64,000 nt of DNA from positions 162,416 to 226,415 of the forward strand of contig JARVJZ010000003.1 in the NCBI GenBank assembly GCA_029775855.1, in the 5' to 3' direction. Shown here piece after piece: positions 39,886-55,768 of the stretch (position 1 is its first letter; each line of letters opens with the position of its first letter). This DNA comes from Nitrososphaeria archaeon (GTDB lineage Archaea > Thermoproteota > Nitrososphaeria > Nitrososphaerales > JAAOZN01). Below the pieces are notes generated by a model, which was not told the origin of the DNA, did no database searches, and worked only from the letters and a program-made list of their open reading frames with translations. The translations under genes were made by a program, and so were the position numbers.

Positions 39886-39889
39886 ATTT

Positions 39890-40138
39890 TCACCCTACCG
39901 CTTCTCTACTTTCTTCAACACTGCCGAGAACCTTATCCAACTCTTCCTCAGCATCTAAACCGCTCTTTTCGACTATTCTCAAGATATTTAGGGCTGTTTT
40001 ATTCATTATATCCACAAGCCTAATCTTATCCCGAGTATCTTTCTCCTTAGGTATCTGCTCATCAAGCCATATGAACCTTTGATAAAGTCTGCTAAGCATC
40101 TCCTTAAGATCTACTGGCGAAATCTGAGCTTCAGCCAA
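39890..40138 (-). CDS. Small helical protein, candidate terminase small subunit
   Basis: Charged helical 82 aa shortly upstream of terL (inference). Confidence 0.45.
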   Translation of the reverse strand: MAEAQISPVDLKEMLSRLYQRFIWLDEQIPKEKDTRDKIRLVDIMNKTALNILRIVEKSGLDAEEELDKVLGSVEESREAVG

Positions 40139-40149
40139 CTACTCACCAC

Positions 40150-40707
40150 TCAAGCGATATACTGCACCTCAACGCCTATTGTTGTGCTGCTGGGTAGGTT
40201 GTGGTGGACTCTGATTTTAATCGGCGTTGGAACCCCAGGCTCTATGACGCCTTGTATTAATGCAGCTGCGTGGTTCAGACCGTATGTGGTCATCTGAGAT
40301 AAACCGATGCTAACACCTCCATATGTTGTGGTCGAGTAGCGGATTGTGAACCCTGTGTTGACTGCGTTGTTGTCGGCATCGGTTACATCGTATCTAATGT
40401 ATCTTCCTTGATTCGCGTCGTACCATGAGTGTGGGCAAGCTACTGTAAGTAGGCATGGGAGCTTGGTTGGTGTGAATATGAGGAGGTCAACCCAAGTATT
40501 TGGTTCAACGCTTTGGCTAGCCACCTCTCTCTTAATATCTGGGATTTTAACCCAGCTTCCCCCTATACGCTGCTTTAAAGCGTCTTCAGATGTATCGTGC
40601 CATAGCTGCCCTTCTGATGGGTTGTCTGGTGGTGTGGAGCCTATATAGAGTGTCTTCAGATTCAGCTTATCCTTAGATATAATTTCAGCAGACTCCCAGA
40701 GGCTCAC
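40150..40707 (-). CDS. Tail fibre-like protein
   Basis: GSTPP.NP.EGQLW.DT....LK....G.W fibre shaft motif, beta-rich C-terminus. Confidence 0.7.
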   Translation of the reverse strand: MSLWESAEIISKDKLNLKTLYIGSTPPDNPSEGQLWHDTSEDALKQRIGGSWVKIPDIKREVASQSVEPNTWVDLLIFTPTKLPCLLTVACPHSWYDANQGRYIRYDVTDADNNAVNTGFTIRYSTTTYGGVSIGLSQMTTYGLNHAAALIQGVIEPGVPTPIKIRVHHNLPSSTTIGVEVQYIA

Positions 40708-40991
40708 TCCGTCTTCACCACCCTTAATGATCCTCTTGCAACTAGAGGCTTACCCGCTATAGACGCTCTAACCTCGTAGAGCCATACACCTATGCCCCAA
40801 GACTCGTCAAGCGTCAAGTCGAAGTGGTATGTGCCTGTCTGCTCTTTAACCGAGCTCTGCGAATCAACCCTCTTAGCCTTAGAAGCATCCCAAACAGAGA
40901 TCTTAGGGGGCTCATCTACATCTGTTAACTCGCCGCTGAAGTCTTTAGATACGATCTTCAGCCTAACGGTTGTTCCAAGCTCGAAGCTCAA
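40704..40991 (-). CDS. Ig-like virion accessory protein
   Basis: G.TV.L......G.L.D...P.I, TG.Y..D, G.W.Y. Confidence 0.6.
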   Translation of the reverse strand: MSFELGTTVRLKIVSKDFSGELTDVDEPPKISVWDASKAKRVDSQSSVKEQTGTYHFDLTLDESWGIGVWLYEVRASIAGKPLVARGSLRVVKTE

Positions 40992-41086
40992 ACCGTTAAC
41001 ACCTCAACTTTAAATATATGCACTTCGGCTGGGTCCGGCTCTGGATCTGAGGCTTGAGGATCTATATCCGCACCGCCCCCGCTCAT
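40988..41086 (-). CDS. 32-aa small ORF MSGGGADIDPQASDPEPDPAEVHIFKVEVLTV
   Basis: Fills the gap; stop overlaps next TTG start. Confidence 0.4.
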   Translation of the reverse strand: MSGGGADIDPQASDPEPDPAEVHIFKVEVLTV

Positions 41087-41103
41087 AAGATCAACCCTTA
41101 GGC

Positions 41104-43311
41104 TCAACCCCAGCCACCTTGATCTATGAACTCCTCAACCTCTTCGACCACATCGAGGATGCCGTCGTTGTCTTGATCTAGCGTCGGGTCTTTCATGCTC
41201 TGACCCCAATGCTTCTTAGATGAGTCAAGCAGATTAGGCAGTGTGAGTTTAACCTCGTGGATCTCTTGATTATGATCTGCTGTTACGGAGAGGTATGTTG
41301 GTAAACCGTCGCCGACAGTAGTGTTCTTCAGCTGAATGAAGTCCGCAGGCCCAGAGGAATCTTTTCTAAACAGCAGAAGATACTTTTTGTTAATATTCCT
41401 TAAGCCATAGTATTGGTTATTTGAGTCTTCGAATTCGTATGTTGCCTTCCCGTCATCTGAGTAGAAGCACTCTAATTTGAGCCTGCATTGACTTATGCCG
41501 TATGACGCTGAGTCTCTGAAGTCCTCTGGAGGCATCTTAACTATGAAGCCAACCCTATTCTTGCAACCATATGTTGATGAATATGTGAACTGATGCTGAT
41601 CTGTAGGCACAAGGAACTTAGCGCCATATATCGTGCCGTGATTGTTATAGCCGCTGTAGTCTTGAGCATCCCCGTCGAAAAGTAAGTCTAACACCAAGCC
41701 GCCTCTCACATCAGGTATAGTTTGGTCGAATCTACGGTTGTAGAGCTGCTGAGTCTCAGATGCAGATAAAGCTCGGTTGTAGATGCGCACCTCATCTGCT
41801 AACATTTTTGTATAACCGCTGAAGCCGTAGCCAATCCTTAGGTTTGATGTCGTCGTTCTCACGGTGGTTCCATTAGTATCCGTTTCCCCGACTAGTGTGC
41901 CGTCAACATACATCCTCAAATATCGTCCATCAAAGGTTCCAGCCCAGTGATGCCACAAACCATCCCTAACATCAACACTACCCGATGCGCTGAAGGAGTT
42001 TCCAGCTGGATTCTTAAAATACACGGAGGGGCGACCAAGAGCGGTGAGGTAAAGCATATAGTCATAGTCGCTAACTCCTTTTTGAACAAAGCCTCTACCA
42101 CCTGATACTCCTGGTTCAAACTTAAACCAACCCTCGAGGGTGAAGGCTGAGGAAAGTTCAAGAGAGCTCCCGCTTCCACAGTTAACATAATCATCCACGC
42201 CGTCGAAGCTTAAAGCGTTGTCAACAACCTTCGTTTCACCCCTTGACCCAGTGTATGCTTCACCTAACCCCGTTCGGTCTGGCAGAATGTCGCTCAGCTT
42301 CGTGCCGTCTAAGAAGAACAGTTTATCTGTTGACGCTAAGCCGCCTTCCAAACATTTCTGATACTGTGAGCCGTTCCAAGAATACAAATCAACTCTCTTA
42401 ACTGTATCCGGCAGCCTCGCTTCAACCTTAACCCATCTGCCAACATCAACAACTATCCTATCAATGTATTTCACATTTTGAGCCGTTGGATATTCGTAGA
42501 TGTTTATTGAGCCCACTGTGCTCCAATTCGGGTTACCCACTTTACCCGCCTTCCTAAGAGGTAGAATAAAGCGTCTCCAGCCTGTGAAGTTATCAACTAT
42601 AAGCCAGTAGAATTGGTCTGCTAAAGTAGGTGCTCCTATCACCACGTTTATGTTTGTGCCTGTGTTTGCGCCGTAGATGTATAGGCAGAGGAAGTCGTAT
42701 GTTGACCAGTCTTGAGTATTTGAAAACTCTCTTCTACAGCCTACTGAAGCGTATGAGCCGCTTCCAATAGCCATCTTCAAGCTGCTTGACCCCTTCGATA
42801 CAGTCGTTGTTTCTTCGGAAAGTACTACACCATAGCTCCCTGAGCCGGCTTGATAAGGGCTCCAAATCGTCTCATCGTCGTCATATACTACTATAGGACT
42901 GCACTCCTCTAAGTCGTTGTCCAAATAGAACTCATAGGAATACTTCATGTTTGCTTTATCGTGGCTCCAGTTGCAGAGTGAACCCTTCACATATGAATCT
43001 ACTAACGCATCCCCTTCTATATCGTAGTTGTTCAAAGGATGTAGTTTTAATTCACCTAAGGAAACAGATGGGAAACCCACTCCATATAGCAGGTAGTCTC
43101 CCTCTCCGAAGTCACTATTACCCCATGGGCTGCATCCGAATTGATTCGCTGATTGATCTTTGGCGTGCTTCTGACTCCAGCCGCATAGCTTCTTGTTCGC
43201 GTAGTCTGCTGGTAGAACTAGCCTACTCCACCTCCCCTTGCTTGGATCTGGGTTCCTGTAGACCCTTAGGTCTTGAACCTCCTTCCAGAAGCCGTATCTT
43301 CGAACAGCCAT
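41104..43311 (-). CDS. LamG/concanavalin-A-domain virion adhesin with a carbohydrate-binding-like domain
   Basis: ALSFDGVDDYV, FTLEGW, DGLWHH...TFDG...MYVDG, DEVRIYNRALS, D.SG.NNHGTIYGA. Confidence 0.85.
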   Translation of the reverse strand: MAVRRYGFWKEVQDLRVYRNPDPSKGRWSRLVLPADYANKKLCGWSQKHAKDQSANQFGCSPWGNSDFGEGDYLLYGVGFPSVSLGELKLHPLNNYDIEGDALVDSYVKGSLCNWSHDKANMKYSYEFYLDNDLEECSPIVVYDDDETIWSPYQAGSGSYGVVLSEETTTVSKGSSSLKMAIGSGSYASVGCRREFSNTQDWSTYDFLCLYIYGANTGTNINVVIGAPTLADQFYWLIVDNFTGWRRFILPLRKAGKVGNPNWSTVGSINIYEYPTAQNVKYIDRIVVDVGRWVKVEARLPDTVKRVDLYSWNGSQYQKCLEGGLASTDKLFFLDGTKLSDILPDRTGLGEAYTGSRGETKVVDNALSFDGVDDYVNCGSGSSLELSSAFTLEGWFKFEPGVSGGRGFVQKGVSDYDYMLYLTALGRPSVYFKNPAGNSFSASGSVDVRDGLWHHWAGTFDGRYLRMYVDGTLVGETDTNGTTVRTTTSNLRIGYGFSGYTKMLADEVRIYNRALSASETQQLYNRRFDQTIPDVRGGLVLDLLFDGDAQDYSGYNNHGTIYGAKFLVPTDQHQFTYSSTYGCKNRVGFIVKMPPEDFRDSASYGISQCRLKLECFYSDDGKATYEFEDSNNQYYGLRNINKKYLLLFRKDSSGPADFIQLKNTTVGDGLPTYLSVTADHNQEIHEVKLTLPNLLDSSKKHWGQSMKDPTLDQDNDGILDVVEEVEEFIDQGGWG

Positions 43312-43317
43312 CTTACA

Positions 43318-43572
43318 TCAGCCTCCTAGAGGATTCTTCAACGCTTCCTCCTTAGCCTTCAGATACTCTTCCTCACTCATCGCTGTGCATGAGCCTTGCG
43401 AGTCGTGGCTGCAGAAGTGAATCTGTATGATGTATTGCTTTGATGGGTTCAGTATGCTCTTTAAATCCTTTAACGCTTCATCTACACCCACTTCGGTAGC
43501 GTCTAGGCGTATGAAGTCCCCCTCTGAAGCTTCTTCGCCTATGATCTCATATGCTTCAACATAGATCTTCAT
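43318..43572 (-). CDS. Hypothetical protein (H.C.HD...C metal-site motif)
   Basis: Coupled ORF. Confidence 0.65.
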   Translation of the reverse strand: MKIYVEAYEIIGEEASEGDFIRLDATEVGVDEALKDLKSILNPSKQYIIQIHFCSHDSQGSCTAMSEEEYLKAKEEALKNPLGG

Positions 43573-43775
43573 TTAACCACCTCCTTCCTAACCACCTTAC
43601 CCCTTAGATCAGAGAGGTCACTAAGTTTCTCGCCGCCGCACTCAACCAAATGTTTACGCTTAACATATCTCCCAGCAACCTCTACGATCTTCTCAAGGCT
43701 CCAAGCCTCCATAGAGACCTCGCTACCCCAAACATCGTGTTTACCAGAGGCCTCCTCCTTCACCTTTAACCTCAA
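43569..43775 (-). CDS. Hypothetical protein
   Basis: Coupled ORF; GGAGGTGG SD for the next gene. Confidence 0.55.
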   Translation of the reverse strand: MRLKVKEEASGKHDVWGSEVSMEAWSLEKIVEVAGRYVKRKHLVECGGEKLSDLSDLRGKVVRKEVVK

Positions 43776-43776
43776 T

Positions 43777-44190
43777 CTACATCACCACCAAATAGTAATC
43801 CCAATTCTTAGGCGGCTCGAAGACATTGTCATTCTGAGGCTCAACACACCAAACCTTGAAGCTGAAGTCGACAAAGCAGTTCAAAGCGTGGCCAAAGTGT
43901 TTGCTCGGGTAAGCCCAGAGTATGCCGAATGCATTAGGAAACCATAGGTTAACTCTACCCATCAAAACAAAGCTGAAGTCGTCACAGTCGAAAAACTCAC
44001 TCAAATACTGCTCCCTATCTGTCAAGTCTTTAGCGAGAAACTGTTCAATTGCTTCTTTAGGTAGAAGCCTATAGTAAGAGTCTCTGAGAAAGATGCTCGC
44101 AGACGGAAAAGCTTTCCGCAGCAGCCCCTCAACAACAGAAGCCTTAACCGTCAAGAAGTTAAAGGGATATAAGATTATACTCAACTTCAA
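43777..44190 (-). CDS. Papain/transglutaminase-like cysteine protease (agglutinin C-terminal-like)
   Basis: FDCDDFS, GHALN, VEPQND. Confidence 0.75.
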   Translation of the reverse strand: MKLSIILYPFNFLTVKASVVEGLLRKAFPSASIFLRDSYYRLLPKEAIEQFLAKDLTDREQYLSEFFDCDDFSFVLMGRVNLWFPNAFGILWAYPSKHFGHALNCFVDFSFKVWCVEPQNDNVFEPPKNWDYYLVVM

Positions 44191-44636
44191 TCCACAGTTA
44201 TATCCCAGTCTAATGTGATGGTCTTTGTCTCATCTTTCACTATAGGTGTTGGGAAGACCGCTCTTGAAAGCATTACACCTCCACTTTGTGATGTAAATAA
44301 GCCCGCTTCACGCCAAACACCATTATTATCTTGGCTGCTAAAGAAGGTTGAAAATGTCGCCGTGCACCCAGATCTGAACCTATCTGTAACCTGCTTTCTA
44401 GAACCTATCGGTTGAATTAGATCTGTGTCTGAAGGTGAAGGCGCTTGGTCGGATGAGCCTACACCACAATACGCAAAGCTCTCTGTTGAAGCTCCAATTA
44501 AGAGGTCGCAGATATGGCTCTTCCCCCTAGAAACTACTAGGTTGGTTATGGTATACTCTTCTATTGGCTTGCTTCCACCAAGGCTCTTATGCACTCGAAT
44601 TCTAACTCTACCTTCTAAGATTATATTCCAGTTCAA
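44187..44636 (-). CDS. Tail collar/fibre-anchor protein
   Basis: NLVV..G, GVG.....P...DT.L, EAGLF, G.ML.R, I.K. Confidence 0.75.
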   Translation of the reverse strand: MNWNIILEGRVRIRVHKSLGGSKPIEEYTITNLVVSRGKSHICDLLIGASTESFAYCGVGSSDQAPSPSDTDLIQPIGSRKQVTDRFRSGCTATFSTFFSSQDNNGVWREAGLFTSQSGGVMLSRAVFPTPIVKDETKTITLDWDITVD

Positions 44637-44650
44637 AACTGTTTACCACC

Positions 44651-44920
44651 TTAACCGCAGCTTGAAAAATCCACTCTAGCACATCCAACTGTGAAGACGC
44701 CCTTTAGATGAGTAAAAGCGCTGCAAGCAGCATTTAGCCCAGTAGCATCGCTAAGTTGCCTTCTGTATCGATTGATTATAAGATTCTCTTCTAAAGGTGT
44801 TTTTTCGCTGAATGTTGTAATGAAGGTAACCACACCTACGCGTGTAGCACCATCTTTAAGCTGCTGGTCTCTAAGGCTACGCTTAATGGAGTCAATAATC
44901 TCCCATAAGTTCTCAGGCAA
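44651..44920 (-). CDS. Hypothetical tail-tip-associated protein
   Basis: Coupled after hub gene. Confidence 0.6.
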   Translation of the reverse strand: MPENLWEIIDSIKRSLRDQQLKDGATRVGVVTFITTFSEKTPLEENLIINRYRRQLSDATGLNAACSAFTHLKGVFTVGCARVDFSSCG

Positions 44921-44921
44921 T

Positions 44922-46355
44922 CTACCCCAACTCCATCTTCATATAATCTATAGCAGATGCGCCTGCATTGTACTCTATGACTACACTTTTGACCGTAAGT
45001 TCACAGTCTATGTGAAGTTCTGGAATTACAACCCTAGCGGCATCTCCTACTTGAGGTATCTTAGATAACCCCTTTACCATTAGGTTTTCGAGGATAAACC
45101 TTCTACTCACCTTTTCAGTAAGGAGGTTTAGAGCTAACGTTTTAACGGTAGCCTTGTCGATTATGTTGGTGTTTACGTATATGAACTCCCTTCGCCCATA
45201 CTTCTTTACGCTGTTTTCGTCAACGGCTTGTGCAAGCACCGGTACACCGTAGAACTGCTTATAGGCTGGTGTCCAACTTCCGTCAACTACTATCCACTCC
45301 TCACCGTCAGAAGAGTATGCGTGTATGTCTTCGTTTGAGTTGTTGTGATACCACCTATATGTAGAAGTTTCTGTGCCACATTTAGCCAAGGTTATCCAAT
45401 ACTGCTTCCCAGCCTCAACATCTGACTGCAAAGGGATAGCAACCCAACTAGGATAGCCTTCCTCACCAACATCTGAGGGTGTAATCGTGAAGTAGTCTAT
45501 CTTTTGACCTCTCGGCTTTCCATCAAGGTCTTGTACAATCTGCCCAGATATAGGCTCGGTTGGTACTCCTTGCTTTTCTAAAAATAGAGCTATCATTCTA
45601 AGTTTATCTCCTGTTGGTGTGAATTTCGCTGCGTAGTGCCCGCTTTCTAATGTGGTGTAGCCTTCTGTGATGGTCTGGCTCTGGTCTACTTTAAGCTCAT
45701 ATCCGCCTATGGCATGCACTATATTGCGCATTTCACGTATACTTTCCAGAACCTCTATCGGCTGGATGATGTTGCTTGATGTCAGCGTCAAATCAGACCT
45801 TCTTGAACCTTTTGGGTAGAAGTGTAGTTTGAGGTTGGGGGTAAAGACATATTGGTAGTGCGCTAGTTCAGCAAGCTGGTCTAGGCACTCCTTTAACGAT
45901 ACGTAATTGAATACTAAGCTGCCTACTTTCTTATCTGTTTCTTGCACACCACTAGTATCAACTTCAGGAGCATACTTAGAGAAAAGGTCTCTCACGATAA
46001 AGTCGATTGTTTTATCGTGGTAAGATTCAACTACATATCTGTTTAACATCAGTATGTATGCATATTCTGCAGCATCTATTACGAGAAGCCTTCTCCCTCC
46101 ACTATAGTTTACAGCTACCTCCTCAACTTGCCCTTGGTAGATGTGTTGTAAAGGAGGGTTTACAGAATCGCAGTAGACGTTTACAATAGAGCCTACGCCG
46201 TATGCTTCTCTGTAGAAGCCGTTTGAGTCGTTGACTATTAGTCTGAATGTGCTTGCGCCTCCTTGGTGTAGCCTTAGTTCAAAGCTGCAGCCTTCGCTTC
46301 CAACAACTCTTGTCTTATTATTTAAGTCGGTTATTTTAACTCTTGCGTAAAGCAT
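44922..46355 (-). CDS. Tail tip/hub protein
   Basis: Follows tape measure; S.KECLDQLAEL, D.NS.KKYG.RE, GD.A.V. Confidence 0.75.
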   Translation of the reverse strand: MLYARVKITDLNNKTRVVGSEGCSFELRLHQGGASTFRLIVNDSNGFYREAYGVGSIVNVYCDSVNPPLQHIYQGQVEEVAVNYSGGRRLLVIDAAEYAYILMLNRYVVESYHDKTIDFIVRDLFSKYAPEVDTSGVQETDKKVGSLVFNYVSLKECLDQLAELAHYQYVFTPNLKLHFYPKGSRRSDLTLTSSNIIQPIEVLESIREMRNIVHAIGGYELKVDQSQTITEGYTTLESGHYAAKFTPTGDKLRMIALFLEKQGVPTEPISGQIVQDLDGKPRGQKIDYFTITPSDVGEEGYPSWVAIPLQSDVEAGKQYWITLAKCGTETSTYRWYHNNSNEDIHAYSSDGEEWIVVDGSWTPAYKQFYGVPVLAQAVDENSVKKYGRREFIYVNTNIIDKATVKTLALNLLTEKVSRRFILENLMVKGLSKIPQVGDAARVVIPELHIDCELTVKSVVIEYNAGASAIDYMKMELG

Positions 46356-46370
46356 GTGTTTGCGCCTTTA

Positions 46371-48191
46371 TCAAATCCTATTTCTGAGCCTCAGCTGCTT
46401 GGCTATTTCAAAGCCTACTTGCTCGGAAAGCTTCTTTACATCTATGTTTGATGAGATCTTCTGTGTTGTGATGTTGATTGAGCCTATGCTGATAGCGCTG
46501 AATGCTGAGAATGTTCTTGCAAGGTCTGTTAGGGTTGGTTCAACAGCGCCTTGGATTTCGGCTAGACCCTTCTTTGTTTGGTTCAGCATGTCGCTCCACA
46601 TATCTGGCCATATGCTTCGCTTTGCTAATATGTCCCAGAGCCAGTTGAATGCAGAGGCTATTGAGTTAACGAAGTTCCAGACCGCGGTTTGGATGGGTGT
46701 TATTGCATTTCTATAGAATCTCCATATAGCTTCTGAGATCGATTCCCAGACTTCAACGGATATATTTTGGAGTGTGGTGAATTGTGTCTGTAGGCTGTTG
46801 ATTAGGCTCAGCAAGCTCAGAGTCTTCTCTGAGATGGTGTTTGAGGCTTTTGCCCAGATGGTTGATATCGAGTTTATGCTTTCCGCTGCTGCTTTAAGAG
46901 CTTCACCTACACTTTCTTTAAAGCGTATGAAAGTTTGTGTGATACCTTCTGCCGTCTGCTTTATTCGATTTGATAAGGTTTCGGCGAATGTATGCAGTGT
47001 CTGTATAAGGTTATCTTGTATCCATTTAACTAATGCTGTAGTTGCTAAAGAGATGCTGCTGAAGAAAGCTTCATAGCCTTCGAGCAGCCAGCTCCTCAAT
47101 CTATCATTCAAGATCTGGATCTGAGATGCGCCTTCACTCACTTTGGCTACAAGAGCGGTAAAACCTCTTTCTAACACGCTGAAGATCTTCTCTCTACCCT
47201 CAGGCTTAGCCCAAGTCACTAGCGTGTTCCCTAGGGCTTCAAGTATAGGTATGAGACCACTGCCAACTACCTCCTTGACCTCCTCCATTAAGTTAGCGAA
47301 CCTAGCGTAAGCTCCTTCTGCTTCGTAGGCTGCTTGAGCGCTTCCTCTAAACTTTAACTCTAGATTTGTGAGAATTTCAGAGAAGCCTATAGTGGTCTTC
47401 TGTGCTTTTGTGCTTGCAGCACCGTATCTATCAAGGAACTCTTCTACCGCTTTAGCGTCGAGTTCACAGAGCTTCTTCTTCATCCGCTCTACTACTTCGC
47501 TCCAAGTCAAAGTCTGTTTTGACGCCTCATCGACCGATACACCTATATTTTTTAGAGATTCTACAACGCTCTCCTCCACCAAAGCTAATCTCCCATACTT
47601 CGATGCTAGGCTTTCGACTCTCTCATTTAACTCAAGAATCTTATAAGATGCCAGCTCAACCTCTACACCATACTTACTCTTCAGATCTGATGCTTGACCT
47701 CTGAATGCTTGACCAAGGTCTTCAACGACTTGCTTTAATGTTCTACCCGAGCCTGCTGCTGTGTCTATCGCAACACTTAGGGTTTTTAGTGCTTCTTCCG
47801 GTTCAATCCCATATCTTATAAGCGTAGTTAACGCTTCAAGGAGTTCCTGTTTTGTATAAAGCGTTGATGCTCTTATCTGATCTATCTGGCTGCTTATCTT
47901 TGGGCCCCATTCGCTCCAGCTCAGACCAAGGTTTTCAATCATCTTTCTTAAAACACCGCTTGCACTTTTCATTTCCACAACCATACCTATGGCTTCTCCA
48001 AGAAAATTTCTGATGGATGAAGCTGCGTTCAATCCTATCGATGCAACTATGAACCCGCCTGCTATGTTCGCTACCTGCCCAAGCTGGCTGAAGCCGCGTG
48101 AAAGCCTACTTGTATTCTCAGCAACGGTTTTGAAGACGCTACTCGCTTGATCTATAGCCCTAATCCTAGCTACAAGGTCGAATGTAGGCAG
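46371..48191 (-). CDS. Tape measure protein, 606 aa from a probable CTG start
   Basis: Open upstream of the tracked start: LPTFDLVARIRAIDQASSVFKTV; long helical; SIWPDMW; AGGTGA SD before CTG. Confidence 0.8.
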   Translation of the reverse strand: MPTFDLVARIRAIDQASSVFKTVAENTSRLSRGFSQLGQVANIAGGFIVASIGLNAASSIRNFLGEAIGMVVEMKSASGVLRKMIENLGLSWSEWGPKISSQIDQIRASTLYTKQELLEALTTLIRYGIEPEEALKTLSVAIDTAAGSGRTLKQVVEDLGQAFRGQASDLKSKYGVEVELASYKILELNERVESLASKYGRLALVEESVVESLKNIGVSVDEASKQTLTWSEVVERMKKKLCELDAKAVEEFLDRYGAASTKAQKTTIGFSEILTNLELKFRGSAQAAYEAEGAYARFANLMEEVKEVVGSGLIPILEALGNTLVTWAKPEGREKIFSVLERGFTALVAKVSEGASQIQILNDRLRSWLLEGYEAFFSSISLATTALVKWIQDNLIQTLHTFAETLSNRIKQTAEGITQTFIRFKESVGEALKAAAESINSISTIWAKASNTISEKTLSLLSLINSLQTQFTTLQNISVEVWESISEAIWRFYRNAITPIQTAVWNFVNSIASAFNWLWDILAKRSIWPDMWSDMLNQTKKGLAEIQGAVEPTLTDLARTFSAFSAISIGSINITTQKISSNIDVKKLSEQVGFEIAKQLRLRNRI

Positions 48192-48197
48192 CCTCTC

Positions 48198-48656
48198 TCA
48201 CCTAAACTTGAACTTGAGCTTAAAGAGGTCTTCAGCCTTCGAAGCCATCTCAGCCATCAACTTAGGTTCAACCTCGCTTATAGCTGGTCTGAGGAAGGGT
48301 CTCTCCCTAAAGCCTGGGTGCTTAGCAGACTTTGCGAAGTATGTGCTTGAACCCGCTCTGAAAAGCAGCGCTTTAGCTGCTCTAGGCCTTATTATATGTG
48401 GTTTGGTGCCAAATTCTATGTATGGTGCGTAATTGAGTTGTGAGCCTATTAGGTAGTTTAATTCCCCTTCTCTAACCCATTTTATGCTTGAAGATAATCT
48501 TCCTGTGCGTTTCGGTGCTAATCTGCTCGCTATTGAAGATGCTGCTTCAACATATTTTCTGAGTATTGCGTCACATACCTTCTTTAGCTCGTTGGCGCCG
48601 CTCAACATCGCATATCTGAAGTCCCAAAGGTTATCTACAGAGACTCTGAGCTCCAA
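48198..48656 (-). CDS. HK97 gp10-like neck/tail completion protein
   Basis: AP.RTG.L..SI, YAPYIEFGT, RPFLRPA. Confidence 0.88.
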   Translation of the reverse strand: MELRVSVDNLWDFRYAMLSGANELKKVCDAILRKYVEAASSIASRLAPKRTGRLSSSIKWVREGELNYLIGSQLNYAPYIEFGTKPHIIRPRAAKALLFRAGSSTYFAKSAKHPGFRERPFLRPAISEVEPKLMAEMASKAEDLFKLKFKFR

Positions 48657-48883
48657 AGACGCCTTCGCCTCTCTATTCTACGCCTTGACTCTTCTATGGC
48701 TGTATGCCGCTTCGGTTCAAGAGCGAAGAGAGACGAGCTTGATGCAAGGCATAACTCATCCACAAGGATGCTAAGTAGACTACCAGAATCAAGGCCAAGT
48801 ATGGCGCTTGGTGCTCGATGTGTAAGTAGCCCAAGGGCACCAGCCCTAACGCCCAAGTTAGTTGCTGCGAAATTTCTCAGCAT
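48635..48883 (-). CDS. Tail assembly chaperone extension (T-like; probably reached by frameshift)
   Basis: Overlaps the chaperone end in the +1 frame; PS.ILG...D motif. Confidence 0.6.
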   Translation of the reverse strand: MLRNFAATNLGVRAGALGLLTHRAPSAILGLDSGSLLSILVDELCLASSSSLFALEPKRHTAIEESRRRIERRRRLWSSESL

Positions 48884-49157
48884 ACCATTCAGCCTCCCCG
48901 TAGAGCTCTATACAGTATCTTAGAAGCTCGTTGAATAGTGTTGTAGTGTCTTCTGCATTTGGTTTAGGTTCTATAAGGCTTTCGCAGAGTAGGCTAACGG
49001 CTTTCTCTATCTCGCTTGAAACTTTAACCGCTTCTTCAACACACTCCACTGACTGAATCTTCTTAAATAAGTTGGCGTAAACTTGTATGAGTGCGTAGTG
49101 CCAAGCTTGCGGTGTCTTCAACCTGTAGATTGAATCGTTAACTTTAATCTCTTTCAA
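48858..49157 (-). CDS. Tail assembly chaperone (G-like)
   Basis: Between tube and tape measure genes; ends AAA TTT CGC AGC AAC TAA. Confidence 0.7.
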   Translation of the reverse strand: MKEIKVNDSIYRLKTPQAWHYALIQVYANLFKKIQSVECVEEAVKVSSEIEKAVSLLCESLIEPKPNAEDTTTLFNELLRYCIELYGEAEWYAEKFRSN

Positions 49158-49305
49158 GTCTCCTCAGTCTGCCGAACCATCTTGAGAAGTGCTCCCATGA
49201 GCAGAAGACCGTGGTTTGCGAAGTGTTTTCATTTACCTTCACCTTTAAGGTTATGGTGAAGTCCTCTGAGGTCAGATGTGCTCCGCAAAGCGAGCAGCTC
49301 GGCAT
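49144..49305 (-). CDS. 53-aa TRASH-like Zn finger (not in ORF track)
   Basis: MPSCSLCG...VFCSWEHF; fills tube-chaperone gap. Confidence 0.65.
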   Translation of the reverse strand: MPSCSLCGAHLTSEDFTITLKVKVNENTSQTTVFCSWEHFSRWFGRLRRLERD

Positions 49306-49308
49306 ACT

Positions 49309-50262
49309 CTAGTATCCGCTCTGGTCGTTTTGAAGTGTGATCTTAACCACACCATTAACGCTGTGTTTGAGCGCCGTGAATGTCAGGATTTGAGTGAGCC
49401 TATCCTGCCCCTTTAGGTTTACATCTCCTTCTTCGTAGATTAGTCTAGGTAGCGTAATCTCTAACTCATACCTATAGTTTCCAGATATCACGCTACCTTG
49501 AAACTTTAGGCTTATGGAGTTCTCTTCTGAAGCTAGAAATCTGTCTAAGTGCGTGCTGCTGTCAAACTTTATGGTCGCGGAGCCCTTAACATCTAATGGC
49601 GCTTCTTCAACTTCCTGTGGAAACCGTGAGCCGAATCTGTAGCCTTCTGGGAAGTTGTTGTTTAGCTCGAGGCTAAAGTGTTCAAATTTTACTGGGATGC
49701 CATTTATCTCTTGATGCACGACTTGAGAGGTATGTATGTAACCTTGCTGAGAGAAGTTAAAGGGGCCTGTGTATAAGTTTACTCTGCTCTCCTCGCCGCC
49801 TAAGATGTCTGCTGTTATGCCTAGGTGGTCCCCTGCTTCACCCTCTATTATGAGCCTATTTACGACGCATCCTGTGATGCGCTTTGCTGCTACGCTCCCT
49901 AAACCTACCTCTATCGTATAGCTCGGCCAAGGAGATGAAGACCCACTTCTAGGTGTAAAGGTGTGTCTGTAAACTGTGGGGTTGCCATTCGGGTCAGGTT
50001 GAGTGGTAGAGACTTCACCTAGGGCAGAATAGAGAAACTCACCTAAACCTTTGTCGTATACTGGGTAAATCTCTATGCTACCCGTTGTTTTGGCTTTTGT
50101 TAAGTCTACTTGTGTGATGAATCTCCCTCCTTCTACCGTCCTCAGATATTCAACACCAGGTTGGAACTTGAGGCTCTCAGAAAGTATTCTTATGTGCGTG
50201 TTGAGGCTCGGCGCGGGCACACCGTAGCTCGACTCCTTACCCATCCTCAAATAGTTTGCCAT
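49309..50262 (-). CDS. Major tail tube protein
   Basis: G.ESSYG, Y.HTFTP, PSYTIEVG, G..VN.L, L.ITLP, I.L.N....Y. Confidence 0.85.
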   Translation of the reverse strand: MANYLRMGKESSYGVPAPSLNTHIRILSESLKFQPGVEYLRTVEGGRFITQVDLTKAKTTGSIEIYPVYDKGLGEFLYSALGEVSTTQPDPNGNPTVYRHTFTPRSGSSSPWPSYTIEVGLGSVAAKRITGCVVNRLIIEGEAGDHLGITADILGGEESRVNLYTGPFNFSQQGYIHTSQVVHQEINGIPVKFEHFSLELNNNFPEGYRFGSRFPQEVEEAPLDVKGSATIKFDSSTHLDRFLASEENSISLKFQGSVISGNYRYELEITLPRLIYEEGDVNLKGQDRLTQILTFTALKHSVNGVVKITLQNDQSGY

Positions 50263-50273
50263 CTTACTATCCC

Positions 50274-50347
50274 CTCAATTCTGTCTAGACACCCTGATTC
50301 CCCAGGGTGTTTCGCCGGAGTTTCACCGGCTCGTCAGTAGACTTAAG
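50274..50347 (-). ncRNA. Type I hammerhead ribozyme; cleavage predicted between 50288 and 50287
   Basis: GUCUA-CUGACGA-GCCGG(UGAAACU)CCGGC-GAAA-CACCCUG(GGGAAU)CAGGGUG-UC/UAGAC. Confidence 0.93.
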
Positions 50348-50786
50348 CATAAGGGGTCCAAACCTTCTTCAGATCTATTATGCGAGCCCAAGCTAGGGCG
50401 TAGTCTTGCTCAGACCCTCTTGCAACCTCTATAACTCTGGGCTCAGGTTCGTTTTCGACTAGACCATCTAATGTTGGGTTGGAGTTCAGCGCTTCTTCAA
50501 CGCCTTCAATCAGCCTATATATGGTCTTTTCAGCTTCATCTTCAGATGCGTGGCGTTCAATTACCCCTATCTCAAACCTTAAGATGTATTGGAATCTGTG
50601 TAAATCAGAGCGTCCACTATATTCTTTACCTAGCCATTGAACATAGATTAAGGGGTATCGGTATGCTGTAAATGGGATGCCAAAATGGTATGCCGCGACA
50701 TCTTTGAGAGTTGGATTTGAGCGCATAACCTCAATATACTTATGCACGAGCTCAGCGTAGACCAAACATTCTCTAACCCTTAACAA
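50343..50786 (-). CDS. Tail terminator-like protein
   Basis: YP.IYV, VE.AL..NPTL.GLV; precedes tube gene. Confidence 0.7.
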   Translation of the reverse strand: MLRVRECLVYAELVHKYIEVMRSNPTLKDVAAYHFGIPFTAYRYPLIYVQWLGKEYSGRSDLHRFQYILRFEIGVIERHASEDEAEKTIYRLIEGVEEALNSNPTLDGLVENEPEPRVIEVARGSEQDYALAWARIIDLKKVWTPYA

Positions 50787-51111
50787 CCCCTGTGGATGCT
50801 GCTTTGCCGGATAGGTAGTTTGAGCGGATGAAATCTTTAAGCCTCTCTTTCGCCTCAGATACTAAGGGTTGGGATTTAGATTCGTCAAGGTTCGCTCTTT
50901 TTAATCTGAAGACTCCGGCAGCCCACTCTGCTGCTATCCATCTTATCTCATCTGGCACCTTTTGCAGAGGCGTCGTTGTGTATGCTCTTAGCTGCTCATC
51001 CATCTGGCTCTCGACATTTAGAATAATCTGCTGTATCTCTGTATCATATTGGATTTCTGTGGGCGTCATGTTCAGCCAACCCTTAACATCGCTTACCGAG
51101 CAATACCTCAT
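50773..51111 (-). CDS. Head-tail adaptor (gp6/gp36-like)
   Basis: YCSVSDVK..L, D..L..Y...PL..VP..I..IA. Confidence 0.78.
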   Translation of the reverse strand: MRYCSVSDVKGWLNMTPTEIQYDTEIQQIILNVESQMDEQLRAYTTTPLQKVPDEIRWIAAEWAAGVFRLKRANLDESKSQPLVSEAKERLKDFIRSNYLSGKAASTGVVKG

Positions 51112-51325
51112 ATTCCCTCAACTCTTTGACCGATGATGGTGCAAATTCTGAAAGCCTTCCGTCTCTGTGAATGAGCCTCCTATTCTCTAGTATAGTTGAA
51201 TTCGTCAATCCATGCTTTGCAAGCCATAGTAGCTGCACTCTGATGTCCCATGAGCCTTCTTTTGAACCTAATTCTTTTAAACCACTCTTTAGAAGACTTT
51301 TAGGAGTTTCTTTTTTAGTCATCAA
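51083..51325 (-). CDS. Hypothetical first gene of the cluster
   Basis: Overlaps adaptor start; TATA upstream. Confidence 0.55.
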   Translation of the reverse strand: MMTKKETPKSLLKSGLKELGSKEGSWDIRVQLLWLAKHGLTNSTILENRRLIHRDGRLSEFAPSSVKELREYEVLLGKRC

Positions 51326-51345
51326 ACTTTGACCACATCTGATAA

Positions 51346-51353
51346 TATTTAAA
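51346..51353 (-). promoter_or_regulatory. TATA box heading the tail/terminase cluster
   Basis: TTTAAATA about 24 nt upstream of ATG 51322 (leaderless spacing). Confidence 0.5.
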
Positions 51354-51580
51354 ATAATTGTTCAGTTATGCGCATATCTATGTAAAAAATTGATAGTGTC
51401 ACACAAGATGGGTTAACAGCAGTATGAGTATACTCCGTTCTGAAAGTCTATGCATACCATTTAAAGGTCGCCTAAAGTTTTCAATGGGTTAAACTTTAGT
51501 GTTCGCTCTCTCAAGCTATTGGTCAAGAAGATTACATAAACTCTCCTAAAGGTGATGTTAAGGCAACATTCCTTTACTCA

Positions 51581-52108
51581 TTGTCTAAAAGTGGTGTGGA
51601 AGAAGGTAGAGAGCAAGAAGAGGTTAGAAGAAAGGTAGCCGAGTGCATAAATTTACTAAATAGGCAAGCGGCTAAGCTCAACCTATCTCTCAGCAAGTTG
51701 AAGGCATTTGAAGATGAATGCTTTCGTAAGACTATCTGGCACCTGAAGGTAGGAGATAAAGCCTCAGCCTCAATATATGCTTCAGAAGTAGCCTACCTAA
51801 GAAGGTTAAACTCGGCGCTCAAAGAGATCAAAGAACTTGTTGCGTACGCAACACTGAAGCTTAACTCTCTACTAGACACGCAGCATCTAACCACCTCGCT
51901 CACCATACTAATCGAAACCTTAAGACAGATACCTCACGGCTTAGACGCTGAAGACCTTGGGCATCTAACCAAACTACTCTGTGATACTGCTACCTCGCAA
52001 AAACGAATTGAAAGAGCTATGCATAAGACAGATTTGCAGACCGAGGGTGTGTTGAAGGAGGCTGAATCTAAGATTCAAGGGGAGTATTCAGAACCCTTAG
52101 CTGGCTGA
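51581..52108 (+). CDS. Divergent ESCRT-III/Snf7 (CdvB paralog)
   Basis: Helical; D..CF..., A.IYA.EVA.LRR, ..VL.EA.. Confidence 0.72.
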   Translation: MSKSGVEEGREQEEVRRKVAECINLLNRQAAKLNLSLSKLKAFEDECFRKTIWHLKVGDKASASIYASEVAYLRRLNSALKEIKELVAYATLKLNSLLDTQHLTTSLTILIETLRQIPHGLDAEDLGHLTKLLCDTATSQKRIERAMHKTDLQTEGVLKEAESKIQGEYSEPLAG

Positions 52109-55100
52109 CTCCCCGCTCTCCTCATTCTGGTATACAAACCCCCTCTTTCTTCTCAACACAAGCCAAGACAGAACCACACCTAGTATGAACGCCGCTGGTA
52201 TTGTTATGAGGTAATTTTCAAAGAGTAATGGCTGCTGCTGAATCTGCTGCGAAACAGGCTTAGCGACGTTAACTTTAATCGTTATAACCTTTGTATGCAC
52301 TACCGCCCTATCATCCATATACTGCACATTCAATTGAAGCGGGTATGTAGCTGGCGGTGCGTCTCCAACTCTTAGGGTTAGGCTGAAAGACGACTGCCCA
52401 TCCTTAGGTATCTCACCGAGTATTGTCGAATATGAGTAATATTCCACGAAAGGCGGGGCTACCAGAGCGCTTACATTCACGCTTTTGGCTGGTATTATCC
52501 CACCATTATACACAATACCGGAAACGGTAAAGGTTGAAGACGGTGCTACAAGCTCCGGTCTCACAGACACACCTGAAACCCTAAGATCTATGTAGCCTCT
52601 GACCGTTAAGCCCAAGGTTAAGTCTTCAAGCCACTCTAAACCTAACCTATCCACATATCTAACTGAAAGGGTTGCTTGAGCTGTTTCTGTTAGCATCTGC
52701 TGCTCTATCAATGATTTTGGCGTAAAGATTTTAACCGCTATTTGTGCCTCTCCGCCAGCCTCTATCTTATCGAAGTACCAGTTTCCGCTGTCTCCTACTA
52801 TACTTAAGGTTGGCGGTAGGTGTAGCTTCACTGAAATATTGTTTGCATCTTCTTCGCCCACATTTCTTAACCTCAGTAAAACCTCGTTCACCTTTGCTGC
52901 ATACAGATCGTAGTCTTCTGTTGAGAGCCTTAGCTTAACCTCGCTCTGTCTGCTGCCAGATATCTGAAAGCCTAGCGTTGCGGTTTCTGTCTTCAAATCT
53001 CCTGTTGGTGTTAAGAGTCTTGCTGTGAGGGTTATCGCTCCTGTTGAGCCTAGGGCTGATTTTGTTACATAGATCTTAAGCGGGATAGTTATGTTTGCGC
53101 CCGCTTCCAACTTATTTACGGTGATGTAATCTACTCCGCTTATCTGAATGGATGCTGAGGGTGATGTAAATCTAAGCTCCATATTACTTAATGAGCCGTC
53201 GAGAAGGTTTGCTAACATCACTTTAATCTCCTCAGCTCCGCCAGCTAAAACCTCCTTAGGTGTGTAGTCTACATTAAGCGCTCGAAGAGTGCTTCGGATG
53301 AGCTGAATAGTCGTCTGCAGCGTTTCACTCCTCCTCTGCCCACCTTCAACATAGTATGTGAAGGTGAAGACTAACGGCACAGCCCCTTCAGCTGAATCAA
53401 ATGGAGCCTTAGCAGAAATAGTAAATTCAGCCTCAGCACCAGACTTTAGAATCCCGAGGCTCTGCTTAGCGCCTGAGGTTATAGTCAAAGGAGGTTGCGT
53501 TGACGCTAATACTTCTAGCGAGTAGGCTGTTGAACCCCCTTGGTTCACCACCTTAAAGCTAAATTCTTTGGCTGTGCCTGATGTTAGCGTGTTATCTCCA
53601 ACTTTAAGTGTTAGAAGAGGCTCTGCAGCTATTTTTGATGCTACCAACCCTAATGAGTAAGTTTCTGTAAATTCAACATCATCTTCATCGTAGTATGTCA
53701 GCGTAAGTTTTGAGTTAAATGTTGACGCTGCAGCTGATGCCGGTGTGTAGACTTCAAGATGTATATTCGCTGCGTCAGAGGGGAATATAGCATTCAGCCT
53801 CCATCGGTCTGTGCTTGCTGTCAGAGGTGGTGGAAGCGTTAAGAATGCTTCTATAGACTTTATAGTTGTGGTTGAATTGTTCAGAACAACTATCTTTACT
53901 GGGCTCCATCCTCCAGCAGTAAGATCAGTTTCAACCCCCTCTACTACTATATGAGGCGCCTTAACCTCTTTGACCGAAGCTGCGATAGTCCTCACTGAAG
54001 TCATCTGAATGTTTGGTGAAGGCTTGTATGTTATGGTTGCTGTAATCTGAAAGGTCTGACCTACCGCTTCTCTCGCTGCAAATATATTTACCACTATACT
54101 TCTAGCTTCGCCAGAAGCTAGATCACCAATCTGCCAAACATTATCCTTACCCTCAAGCCTTAACGGCGGAGTTAAACTTAGACTCAATCTAACAGAATAA
54201 AGAGTTCTAGCATCATTATTCCTCACTGTAAGATGTAGTGTATTCGCTTTGCCAGCAGCAAGCATTTGCTTAGATGCCACAACATCCAGCTCAGCTTCTC
54301 TCACCGTATTGACATAGAAGAATACGCTCTTACCCTCCCTCATACTGTTCCCAACACTGTTTCTGTATGAGGTGGTTAGGGTGATCTGATAGGTGCCACC
54401 AGCTGAAGAAGGTGGGGCATAGATTGAAACCTTTACGCTCTTCACCTCTCCAGCCTTAAGCAAGCCTAACTCCCATTCAGCTTCGCCACCAACTATGATA
54501 AGCGGAGGTGTAGTTGCTACTGTAGCCTTCAAGGCGCTTATATCTGCTGAACCCGCATTTCTAAATGTGAATCTGACGACGTTTACGCTGTCAGCATCAA
54601 GCCCACCTACATCAGCGCTAACCTCAACCCTAGCCTTCCCAGTAATTGGGATTTGAATCGTTAAGTTAACTGGGTTCCTATACACCACACCATCTGGCTG
54701 ATTAGCGTAGTAGCGTATGGTTAGAGGAAGTGTATAAAAGCCCTTTTGTGCACCCTCTAGAATATTGAGATTGTAGTTGAAGAGCACAAGCCCGCCAAAA
54801 GACGGTATCGTATAGTTAAAGGATGACGTTAAGGTACTTCTACCTAAAGGATCTGAAAACGGCGCTCTTAGATGTAGCTCACCCTCAAAGCTGCTCAGAG
54901 TAAATTCCGCTGAAGCCCTAACACCTACTGTAAGTGGTGCAGCAACCTCTCCAGCATCCACCTCTAATGGTGATGTTATTGAACCCCATCTGACATACGC
55001 AACATCAAACCTCACAAGATTTACGGTAAGTGAGTAGAAGCCAACGTTATCAAGCAGATTCGACACCTTAAGGTAGTATTCGCCTTCAACATCAACTATG

Positions 55101-55768
55101 CTCTGAAGAGCCTCTGAACCACCTAAACCCACTCTATTTGACGAAGCTAACATCACTCTATCCGGGCTATAGAGGGTTAAGGTAAGGTCGAGCTGCTTGG
55201 TCGGAGCTACTGTAGCTGTAAGTATCTGCCCAACCCTACCACTTATCTTATAATAGTGCTCACCCCTCGAATCTATTGTATAATTATATGTCCCTTCAAG
55301 TATGGTTAAAGCGTCTTGAATAGTTGCTCCCGGAGCTATTGGAGAGAAGGTTAGAGTATATGTATCTTGTATAGGCAGCCTATTCTCAACCCTGATGAAG
55401 TAGTAGCCTGAGAGCTTCACCAGATAACGAATTTCTTCTTTAAAGCCTACATTAGCTTGGGCTGATGAAGCGACCACTGCTTGCGCATCGTTGTAAAGAT
55501 ATAGGTTCAGATCACTGTTTTGCATCGTAAGCGTTATCGCTACACTCTGCCCCCTAGCAGCCTCAAACTTAAAAAAGTGGTTAGCGGATGCAGGGATGAT
55601 GTAAGTGTATGTGCCAGCAGAGATAACAGCAGCGTTAGCAAATGATGTTCCCGCTTGAGCAAACACACGGTGCTGTAAGCCCCATCCAACCAAAACAGCA
55701 AAGAAGCATATAATCAACACAGTTCTCCAAGCTTTGTTCAACGCCCTCAACTCTAAACTCATCCCCAA
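52097..55768 (-). CDS. Large surface protein: PPC-like domains plus repeated COG1361/CARDB-like Ig folds, C-terminal TM
   Basis: Signal peptide, DL.LYLY..., G.YY.RV, repeated N.G...A motifs, TM followed by RRKR. Confidence 0.82.
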   Translation of the reverse strand: MGMSLELRALNKAWRTVLIICFFAVLVGWGLQHRVFAQAGTSFANAAVISAGTYTYIIPASANHFFKFEAARGQSVAITLTMQNSDLNLYLYNDAQAVVASSAQANVGFKEEIRYLVKLSGYYFIRVENRLPIQDTYTLTFSPIAPGATIQDALTILEGTYNYTIDSRGEHYYKISGRVGQILTATVAPTKQLDLTLTLYSPDRVMLASSNRVGLGGSEALQSIVDVEGEYYLKVSNLLDNVGFYSLTVNLVRFDVAYVRWGSITSPLEVDAGEVAAPLTVGVRASAEFTLSSFEGELHLRAPFSDPLGRSTLTSSFNYTIPSFGGLVLFNYNLNILEGAQKGFYTLPLTIRYYANQPDGVVYRNPVNLTIQIPITGKARVEVSADVGGLDADSVNVVRFTFRNAGSADISALKATVATTPPLIIVGGEAEWELGLLKAGEVKSVKVSIYAPPSSAGGTYQITLTTSYRNSVGNSMREGKSVFFYVNTVREAELDVVASKQMLAAGKANTLHLTVRNNDARTLYSVRLSLSLTPPLRLEGKDNVWQIGDLASGEARSIVVNIFAAREAVGQTFQITATITYKPSPNIQMTSVRTIAASVKEVKAPHIVVEGVETDLTAGGWSPVKIVVLNNSTTTIKSIEAFLTLPPPLTASTDRWRLNAIFPSDAANIHLEVYTPASAAASTFNSKLTLTYYDEDDVEFTETYSLGLVASKIAAEPLLTLKVGDNTLTSGTAKEFSFKVVNQGGSTAYSLEVLASTQPPLTITSGAKQSLGILKSGAEAEFTISAKAPFDSAEGAVPLVFTFTYYVEGGQRRSETLQTTIQLIRSTLRALNVDYTPKEVLAGGAEEIKVMLANLLDGSLSNMELRFTSPSASIQISGVDYITVNKLEAGANITIPLKIYVTKSALGSTGAITLTARLLTPTGDLKTETATLGFQISGSRQSEVKLRLSTEDYDLYAAKVNEVLLRLRNVGEEDANNISVKLHLPPTLSIVGDSGNWYFDKIEAGGEAQIAVKIFTPKSLIEQQMLTETAQATLSVRYVDRLGLEWLEDLTLGLTVRGYIDLRVSGVSVRPELVAPSSTFTVSGIVYNGGIIPAKSVNVSALVAPPFVEYYSYSTILGEIPKDGQSSFSLTLRVGDAPPATYPLQLNVQYMDDRAVVHTKVITIKVNVAKPVSQQIQQQPLLFENYLITIPAAFILGVVLSWLVLRRKRGFVYQNEESGESAS

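Follow-up and report, generated by a model that had tools for sequence, protein, structure and literature searches.

Bacterial hammerhead ribozymes number in the hundreds in the survey of Perreault et al. 2011 (PMC3088659), and the portion of that work drawn on here places many of them in prophages, often flanking genes, and counts at least three archaeal examples. The same portion proposes a function in mRNA processing and mentions circular or spliced products, which were not detected there. The role of these prophage ribozymes has been a standing question since 2011. In this work we describe an RNA element that is very likely a type I hammerhead ribozyme, encoded in the tail gene cluster of a Nitrososphaeria archaeon (assembly GCA_029775855.1). 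It lies in a 64,000-nucleotide (nt) stretch of contig JARVJZ010000003.1 (positions 162,416 to 226,415), which we call the window and by whose own numbering positions are given, and it occupies the gap between a gene for a predicted tail terminator and the gene for the tail tube protein.

As a kind, such an element is already known from the intercistronic hammerheads of prophages. Those covered in the cited portion of PMC3088659 also have a consensus core and stand between genes of long phage transcripts, type I is found among them along with types II and III, and processing into gene-length mRNAs was proposed for them. They differ in being bacterial and in often forming arrays of two or three that flank genes near integrases, whereas the window holds a single type I ribozyme at a terminator/tube boundary in Nitrososphaeria, together with a head-to-tail RNA junction. 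A second likeness is the hammerhead of the haloviruses HF1 and HF2 (HHphage), which also belongs to a tailed archaeal virus. According to the same portion of PMC3088659 it is a core variant located 13 nt ahead of a helicase start codon, compared with 25 nt in the window, and a transcript 5' end has been mapped near its cut site. The HHphage core is adapted to high salt, and the helicase gene behind it is an early gene of a lytic virus, while the window has a canonical core before a late structural gene in a chromosomal cluster. Type I hammerheads have also been reported in the 5' untranslated regions of RNA mycoviruses, where, in the part of Lopez-Galiano et al. 2026 (PMC13725137) that concerns us, cleavage is needed for translation. 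There, too, the ribozyme lies directly upstream of an open reading frame (ORF) and self-cleavage makes the 5' end of the translated RNA. The mycoviruses described in that part are linear eukaryotic RNA viruses with cap-independent translation, in contrast to the DNA-encoded archaeal operon of the window, which has a Shine-Dalgarno (SD)-led cistron.

What is new here is the Nitrososphaeria host, the terminator/tube position within a vertically kept tail cluster, and the RNA junction at the cut site. In the library searched, no paper was found that treats hammerheads and Nitrososphaeria together, and the papers mentioning hammerhead ribozymes along with Thaumarchaeota concern translation initiation in Saccharolobus; the supplementary alignments of Perreault et al. 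2011, which lay outside that search, may already list the module. The locus extends the hammerhead type to Nitrososphaeria and provides a clean setting, with a single canonical ribozyme at the boundary between low-copy and high-copy tail genes that is syntenic across species of a thermophilic ammonia-oxidizing archaeal genus.

The element was originally predicted from the letters of the window alone, and on reading the minus strand we found the list of its parts to be correct in every detail (Table 1). All conserved positions of the hammerhead core are present (C3 U4 G5 A6 N7 G8 A9 and G12 A13 A14), stems I, II and III have 5, 5 and 9 bp, A(50310) pairs with U(50289), and N17 is not G but C17. 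Stem I is open and loops close stems II and III, which is the topology of type I, as the original prediction had stated along with the consensus core. The intergenic gap measures 80 nt, from the terminator stop codon TAA at 50345-50343 to the tube ATG at 50262; this length, the 25-nt leader left after cleavage and its retention of the GAGGGG motif likewise agree with what had been proposed. The 16S rRNA of the host ends in ...GGAUCACCUCCU, and relatives carry GGAGGUGA at the SD place of the tube leader. The minimum free energy (MFE) fold yields all three stems as well as a distal extension of stem I (-28.1 kcal/mol, z = -2.81). In this extension UUGAG pairs with CUUAA (50347-50343); CUUAA contains the terminator stop codon and UUGAG overlaps the first SD bases.

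The loose pattern CTGANGA..GAAA..TH is not significant alone, with 4 matches against 17 expected. The full descriptor (core, three stems, N17 not G) is found at three places in the 1.5-Mb genome, and only the one at 50342-50283 has long stems (5/9/5 bp for stems II, III and I); the other two have stems of 5/5/3 and 3/3/3 bp and large loops. Twelve first-order Markov genomes with the same dinucleotide statistics gave no descriptor match with all stems of at least 5 bp, and a mean of 0.08 matches per genome with all stems of at least 4 bp.

Conservation at the locus was followed through the tube gene, which was found in three of the four genomes examined for this genus and family and, of 401 genomes sampled across the class, in 6. 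The ribozyme stands at the same place in both congeneric genomes, and six metagenome contigs that cover this locus have it there as well. When 1.2 kb of DNA from the window and the two congeneric genomes were aligned three ways, the longest invariant run was 30 nt and was made up of the core, stem II, loop II and GAAACA. Between the window and these relatives the tube gene shows about 0.09 nonsynonymous substitutions per site (dN) with saturated synonymous sites, and between the two relatives the ratio of dN to synonymous substitutions (dS) is 0.031/0.699. By these comparisons the proteins of the tail cluster are under purifying selection. Because the 30-nt block is invariant while synonymous sites are saturated, the RNA element is under purifying selection of its own. 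Compensatory changes are also seen at this same locus: one stem I pair changes from A-U to G-C, and the sixth pair of stem III is C-G, A-U or U-A.

Exact copies of a 29-nt module, in which core position 7 is N, were found in 23 metagenome contigs, of which 18 parse as full type I hammerheads, two are spacers of clustered regularly interspaced short palindromic repeats (CRISPR), and three are unparsed (L014 and the identical L021 and L030). The module has no copy in the viral_contigs set, the 60-nt ribozyme has no blastn match among INPHARED phages, and no relative of the tube protein was found in viral_contigs. From the module contigs, the window and the genome loci we built an alignment (A1) of 15 distinct ribozymes, each row of which had to contain the exact stem II module and, in a second step, to satisfy a descriptor demanding stems of at least 3 bp. 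In A1, 97.9% of cells pair, a fraction that is somewhat inflated by this choice of rows, which also makes stem II uninformative there. Nine of 16 pairs change on both sides, namely all five of stem I and four of the six of stem III. None of 500 shuffles reached the paired fraction, the both-side changes or the covariation score of A1, and 16 of 500 reached its count of further pair types; when the pairing partner was slid by 1-3 columns as a control, pairing fell to 34-47%. Covariation in homologues had been put forward as a check of the original prediction, and in stems I and III it is found.

A covariance model built from A1 (R1) scores the window copy at 72.6 bits (E 1e-22), its sole strong match in the genome; the other matches there are weak (15.3 and 14.5 bits, E 0.18 and 0.36). 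Across the class, R1 matches 9 of 151 sampled genomes at E <= 0.01, a count that qualifies the earlier statement that archaeal examples are few. Stem II, held fixed in A1 by the choice of rows, covaries in the three strongest genome matches of R1 (GUCCG/CGGAC, GUCUG/CAGAC), two of which keep the loop II sequence UGAAAYU while the third has UGAGACC. A match of 15.6 bits in the more distant tube locus L008 lies inside coding sequence and was taken as chance. The placement of the ribozyme is consistent in many unrelated contigs, with a stop codon just ahead of it and an SD and a start codon behind it: the longest upstream open frame ends 4-8 nt ahead of the core in 12 of the 21 non-CRISPR module contigs, and in most of these 21 an ORF starts within ~65 nt behind an A-rich or GGAGG leader.

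The stretch was found in nine sequencing runs, one of which is a metatranscriptome (X7), represented by contigs only. We compared X7 with three DNA runs (X2, X3 and X6) over 49300-51200, where three X7 contigs align at >=95% identity. Record 12, which is one of these three and has 239 nt and a mean word depth of 19.9, follows the minus strand from 50430 to 50288 and then continues from 50947 to 50852, thereby jumping back by 660. The joint 50288|50947 contains no shared and no inserted letters. Its 50288 end is the predicted C17, in the right orientation for the 2',3'-cyclic-phosphate end of a hammerhead, and the chance that an end of the joint would fall on the predicted bond is ~2 in 1901 (~0.1%; one joint in 1901 positions). 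Transcript ends at 50287/50288 had been named beforehand as a check, and the X7 contig ends exactly at 50288|50287. The DNA contigs of X2 (49300-51019) and X3 (49979-51035) are collinear across both 50288 and 50947; for X6 no joint was reported, and its listed pieces do not bridge either place. This one contig gives support for ribozyme cleavage in situ that is real, though thin. The RNA evidence covers the upstream (5') cleavage product only, joined to 50947. We rejected a repeat-driven assembly chimera, as none of the 16-mers in 50200-51400 has a second copy elsewhere in the genome and the two sides of the joint share no letters. Among the listed X7 contigs none covers 49940-50259 or 50948-51027, and those inside 50288-50947 have a higher word depth than the tube contig; as transcripts can be neither ranked nor called absent from contig gaps and depths, we draw nothing from them.

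Taken together, these data make it quite probable that the element is a constitutive type I hammerhead that splits the polycistronic tail mRNA of a resident siphovirus-like cluster. Transcription would start, probably at a TATA-like box near 51350, and run through an 80-amino acid (aa) ORF, a 112-aa ORF, the terminator gene, the hammerhead and the tail tube gene. The ribozyme would fold directly after the terminator stop codon and cut after C17 (50288). The upstream product would then carry the low-copy connector and terminator genes and have the stem III hairpin and a 2',3'-cyclic phosphate at its 3' end, and some of it may be ligated; the downstream product would have a 5'-OH, the 25-nt SD-bearing leader and the high-copy tube gene. 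In phage lambda a single terminator hexamer is used along with roughly thirty tube hexamers. Cleavage would uncouple the fates of the two operon halves at this low-copy/high-copy boundary, and it is plausible that it alters how stable the tube and terminator messages are relative to each other, or how well each is translated. A stabilization of the tube mRNA, as put forward in the original prediction, or a raised tube output would be effects of this kind. As the distal strand of stem I overlaps the first SD bases, cleavage and strand release could unmask the SD, a feature of the window that is not conserved in the relatives. A terminating ribosome would cover stem I, since the stop codon abuts stem I in most contexts, which suggests an interplay between upstream translation and ribozyme folding. 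The case raises the question of whether cleavage sets the expression ratio of neighboring cistrons, and whether cyclic-phosphate ends are fed into RtcB ligation to give archaeal circular mRNAs.

Apart from the row selection in A1, several observations weigh against this proposal. The search with Rfam hammerhead models that the original prediction had called for returned no family at its gathering score: at gathering thresholds there are no matches in the whole window, and RF00163 (Hammerhead_1, gathering 34 bits) has no match at E <= 10 in the whole genome. The best match in e-value mode is RAGATH-1-hammerhead (RF03152) with 26.8 bits against a gathering score of 56.3 (E 0.014), and the match of RF00008 (Hammerhead_3) is partial and permuted, with 20.1 bits against 48.5. 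RF03152 resembles the window element in its type I topology, and the match spans stem I, core, GAAAC, stem III and GUC; it differs in that an extra 5' hairpin of the model is unmatched, stem II of the window is longer and the score is below threshold. The distal extension of stem I is out of register among relatives, which have purine-rich internal loops instead. The contact between the stem I bulge and loop II that the original prediction had suggested may exist in the window, where the bulge and extension are seen in the fold. No hammerhead precedes the tube gene in three more distant tube loci (L006 with 53% identity, L007 and L008 with 36%), and the ribozyme is therefore not required for such operons. 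Finally, record 12 is one assembled contig from one run and carries no strand, counts or end chemistry, and an RNA library can contain DNA.

On the Rfam scores, and on the lack of enrichment of the loose pattern, one might argue that the element is an ordinary intergenic hairpin region that resembles a hammerhead by chance. Such a resemblance is contradicted by the uniqueness of the full-descriptor match, the random-genome controls, the covariation and the RNA end at C17, and we consider it extremely improbable. The motif has the defining features of the hammerhead class while belonging by score to no Rfam sub-family, and its identity as a hammerhead ribozyme is very likely. A different objection would see in the hammerhead a selfish or relict module, moving from one viral intergenic spacer to another and without a role for the operon. 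The identical 29-nt module in the unrelated contexts of 23 contigs, and its absence from the more distant homologous tail operons, would fit this idea. The ribozyme is nevertheless intact at the syntenic site in three of four genus genomes, with compensatory changes where synonymous sites are saturated, and it is consistently flanked by a stop codon immediately upstream and by an SD and start codon downstream, all of which makes a selfish or relict module improbable.

The joint in record 12 raises the further issue of what becomes of the upstream product. The ligase RtcB connects 2',3'-cyclic phosphate ends with 5'-OH ends and is a source of circular RNAs in archaea; the host encodes an RtcB (E 2e-178). 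In retrozymes and engineered Tornado circles it is a ribozyme-made 2',3'-cyclic phosphate that is joined by an RtcB-type ligase, with a ribozyme at both ends, whereas in the window there is a ribozyme at the 3' end only. It is conceivable, if rather unlikely, that the hammerhead is half of an RNA circularization device in which the C17 end and a ribozyme-independent 5'-OH at 50947 would be joined by RtcB into a 660-nt closed terminator mRNA. That the main product is a ligated, probably circular RNA of 660 nt (50947..50288, minus strand), arising from the hammerhead cyclic phosphate, an endonucleolytic cut at 50948|50947 and host RtcB, is a possibility that we take seriously while doubting it. 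An RNA of this kind might, with the same reserve, be an exonuclease-resistant message with the whole terminator ORF, and it would add to the processing model more than exclude it. In its favor are the clean head-to-tail joint with collinear DNA contigs, the uniqueness of every 16-mer, the RtcB of the host and the complete terminator ORF inside the 660 nt. Against it, neither a ribozyme nor a conserved RNA element was recognized at 50947: an Rfam e-value scan of 50780-51120 gave two weak small nucleolar RNA matches (E 6-7), local and circular folds near this position are undistinctive, and the DNA there varies in a codon-like manner among relatives. Moreover, on one contig from one run, a circle, an intermolecular join and a chimera of complementary DNA would look alike.

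Position 50947 is the third position of codon 55 (GA|G) of the 112-aa ORF. RelE-type ribosome-dependent nucleases cut at such a codon position, and a cut between the second and third codon bases would fit an enzyme of this type, which is speculation on our part. By eye we also considered a P1 like that of hepatitis delta virus, a hammerhead substrate site and a complementarity to stem I that would allow hammerhead-mediated ligation at 50947; these were ruled out (<=4 bp, 16.1 = G). An endless reading frame on the circle was likewise rejected: 660 nt correspond to 220 codons, yet there are stops in all three frames.

Alternatively, the junction may have been made in the library, with reverse transcriptase jumping from an RNA 5' end at 50947 to the 3' end of the cleaved hammerhead and no ligation taking place in the cell. 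False back-splice junctions are known to arise when the enzyme jumps from the end of one template to the end of another, and read support is uncountable for a joint seen in assembled contigs only. The joint was assembled at the depth given above and bears no non-templated letters, which speaks against such a jump, and we regard it as somewhat unlikely but still as a serious alternative. A jump would also require the RNA to have discrete ends at 50288 as well as at 50947, and whether the joint reflects a circle or a reverse transcriptase jump, a 3' end at C17 is needed. Circular or spliced products of prophage hammerheads were raised and not detected in the cited portion of Perreault et al. 2011 (PMC3088659); if circularization is true, it would amount to detection of the circular product considered there. 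For an archaeon or an archaeal virus it would also be the first natural case of a circular RNA that codes for a protein and is made with a single ribozyme.

Table 1. Positions of the hammerhead ribozyme, its parts and the surrounding features in the window
Feature	Position	Strand	Basis or remark
Type I hammerhead (stem I, core, stem II, GAAA, stem III, GUC, stem I)	50283..50342	minus	sequence, descriptor, covariance model R1, covariation
Stem I, GUCUA with UAGAC, 5 bp	50342-50338 with 50287-50283	minus	sequence
Core CUGACGA	50337-50331	minus	sequence
Stem II GCCGG/CCGGC, 5 bp, loop UGAAACU	50330-50314	minus	sequence
GAAA	50313-50310	minus	sequence
Stem III CACCCUG(G)/(U)CAGGGUG, loop GGAA; 9 bp counting A15.1-U16.1 (50310/50289)	50309-50290	minus	
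Predicted scissile bond, C17 = 50288, N1.1 = 50287	50287..50288	minus	hammerhead geometry (GUC then UAGAC)
Core, stem II and loop II	50314..50337	minus	with GAAACA, the 30-nt block invariant among relatives
AGAA bulge (50282-50279) and UUGAG (50278-50274), distal stem I extension	50274..50282	minus	MFE fold
25-nt leader on predicted 3' cleavage product	50263..50287	minus	SD-like GAGGGG at 50276-50271, 8 nt ahead of tube ATG
Tail tube (major tail) protein gene, 317 aa	49309..50262	minus	Phage_tube_2, PHROG 290, tblastn
Tail terminator-like gene, 140 aa from TTG at 50765 (ORF frame to 50786)	50343..50765	minus	PHROG, Foldseek
112-aa connector-like ORF	50773..51111	minus	ORF list; weak Mu Gp36 match, E 0.0057
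80-aa ORF	51083-51325	minus	downstream of TATA-like block
Conserved TATA-like TTTAAATATT	51344..51353	minus	three-way alignment, upstream of 80-aa ORF
660-nt segment, ends joined head to tail in record 12	50288..50947	minus	whole terminator ORF and hammerhead to C17

The two genes that the hammerhead would separate were both assigned by homology, and the original prediction had placed the ribozyme between a terminator gene and a tube gene, a placement with which these assignments accord. The tube protein matches Pfam PF18906 (Phage_tube_2) over residues 4-297 with 89.5 bits (E 3.5e-25), passing the curated cut-off of 27 bits; it also matches PHROG 290 (E 1.7e-35) and, by tblastn, siphovirus features annotated as major tail or tail tube protein. 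For the upstream gene there is a weak match to PHROG 4204, tail terminator (E 4e-4), and its homologues, all close and unnamed, are 140 aa long. Its AF2 model has a mean predicted local distance difference test score (pLDDT) of 68.9, and its top Foldseek matches (E 6e-6 to 6e-4, TM-scores of about 0.5-0.6) include lambda gpU, the neck of P74-26 and p142 of T5; 8iyd_G (E 6.4e-6) and 3fz2_C (E 2.1e-5) match with TM-scores of 0.56-0.62. The modeled fold, together with the position directly before the tube gene, points to a lambda-gpU-like tail terminator.

Upstream of these genes, the conserved block AATTAATTTAAATATT stands at 51344-51353 and at the homologous places in L004 and L005, and it resembles an archaeal TATA box. 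From its sequence and position it is the probable promoter of an operon comprising the 80-aa ORF, the 112-aa ORF, the terminator gene, the hammerhead and the tube gene. Downstream of the tube gene follow a tail-completion-like gene, a tape measure gene, hub-like and fiber-like genes and a large terminase gene. The tail cluster as a whole spans 37904-51353 of the minus strand, with the large terminase at its end. Among the ORFs scanned against Pfam and PHROGs, no capsid, portal, protease or integrase gene was recognized, and the cluster, instead of being a complete provirus, may have been domesticated or be decaying. In a congeneric 14-kb contig (L032) the cluster has the host neighbors that it has in the window (CitMHS transporter, TackOD1, GT2, V4R/ACT and deacetylase), and it is therefore long-resident and not a recent integration. 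Between the tail operon and the CitMHS gene, the minus strand of the window encodes at 52097-55768 a 1223-aa protein with CARDB, NPCBM_assoc, PPC and DUF11 domains. Since L032 has an N6/N4 DNA methylase, a DpnII-like endonuclease and a Snf7-like gene in this place, the slot beside the cluster is a variable island.

The host is a hot-spring ammonia-oxidizing Nitrososphaeria archaeon. Its genome has 1.5 Mb and 43% G+C and is 98% complete, the TackOD1 gene adjoining the cluster carries a 'Thaumarchaeal output domain', among public sequences the tube gene has its closest relative in a metagenome-assembled genome labeled Nitrosopumilales, and the stretch was found in runs labeled hot springs metagenome.

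Related hammerheads were also seen at other loci. Three loci of other Nitrososphaeria (L037, L038 and L039, from genomes G043, G140 and G077) have closely similar hammerheads with stem I AUCCC...GGGAK and stem II GUCYG/CRGAC; loop II is UGAAAYU in L037 and L038 and UGAGACC in L039. These ribozymes are located between an ORF of 75-110 aa and an ORF of 210-236 aa with a GGAGGUGA leader, and the proteins downstream of them have no informative PHROG match. In L040 (G151:C1, same class), three type I hammerheads lie within ~1.6 kb of the minus strand at 589-638, 1501-1550 and 2167-2216. Two of them would stand at the very start of repeated transcription units, as the near-identical TATA-like TATTTAATTTTTGAA is found ~15 nt upstream. 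In L011 (and also in L028) two hammerheads on the same strand, at 4683-4734 and 4981-5032 of L011, are 298 nt apart and flank one 75-aa ORF. Paired in this way, they could release, and perhaps circularize, a one-gene RNA.

The two CRISPR spacers that correspond to the hammerhead module are L022:682-718, in an array with a 37-nt repeat in at least 44 copies, and L018:5713-5748, in an array with a 29-nt repeat in at least 35 copies. Neither repeat is present in the genome of the window. The L022 spacer is identical to the window ribozyme at 34 of 37 positions, and a spacer against so conserved a ribozyme module could target many unrelated viruses.

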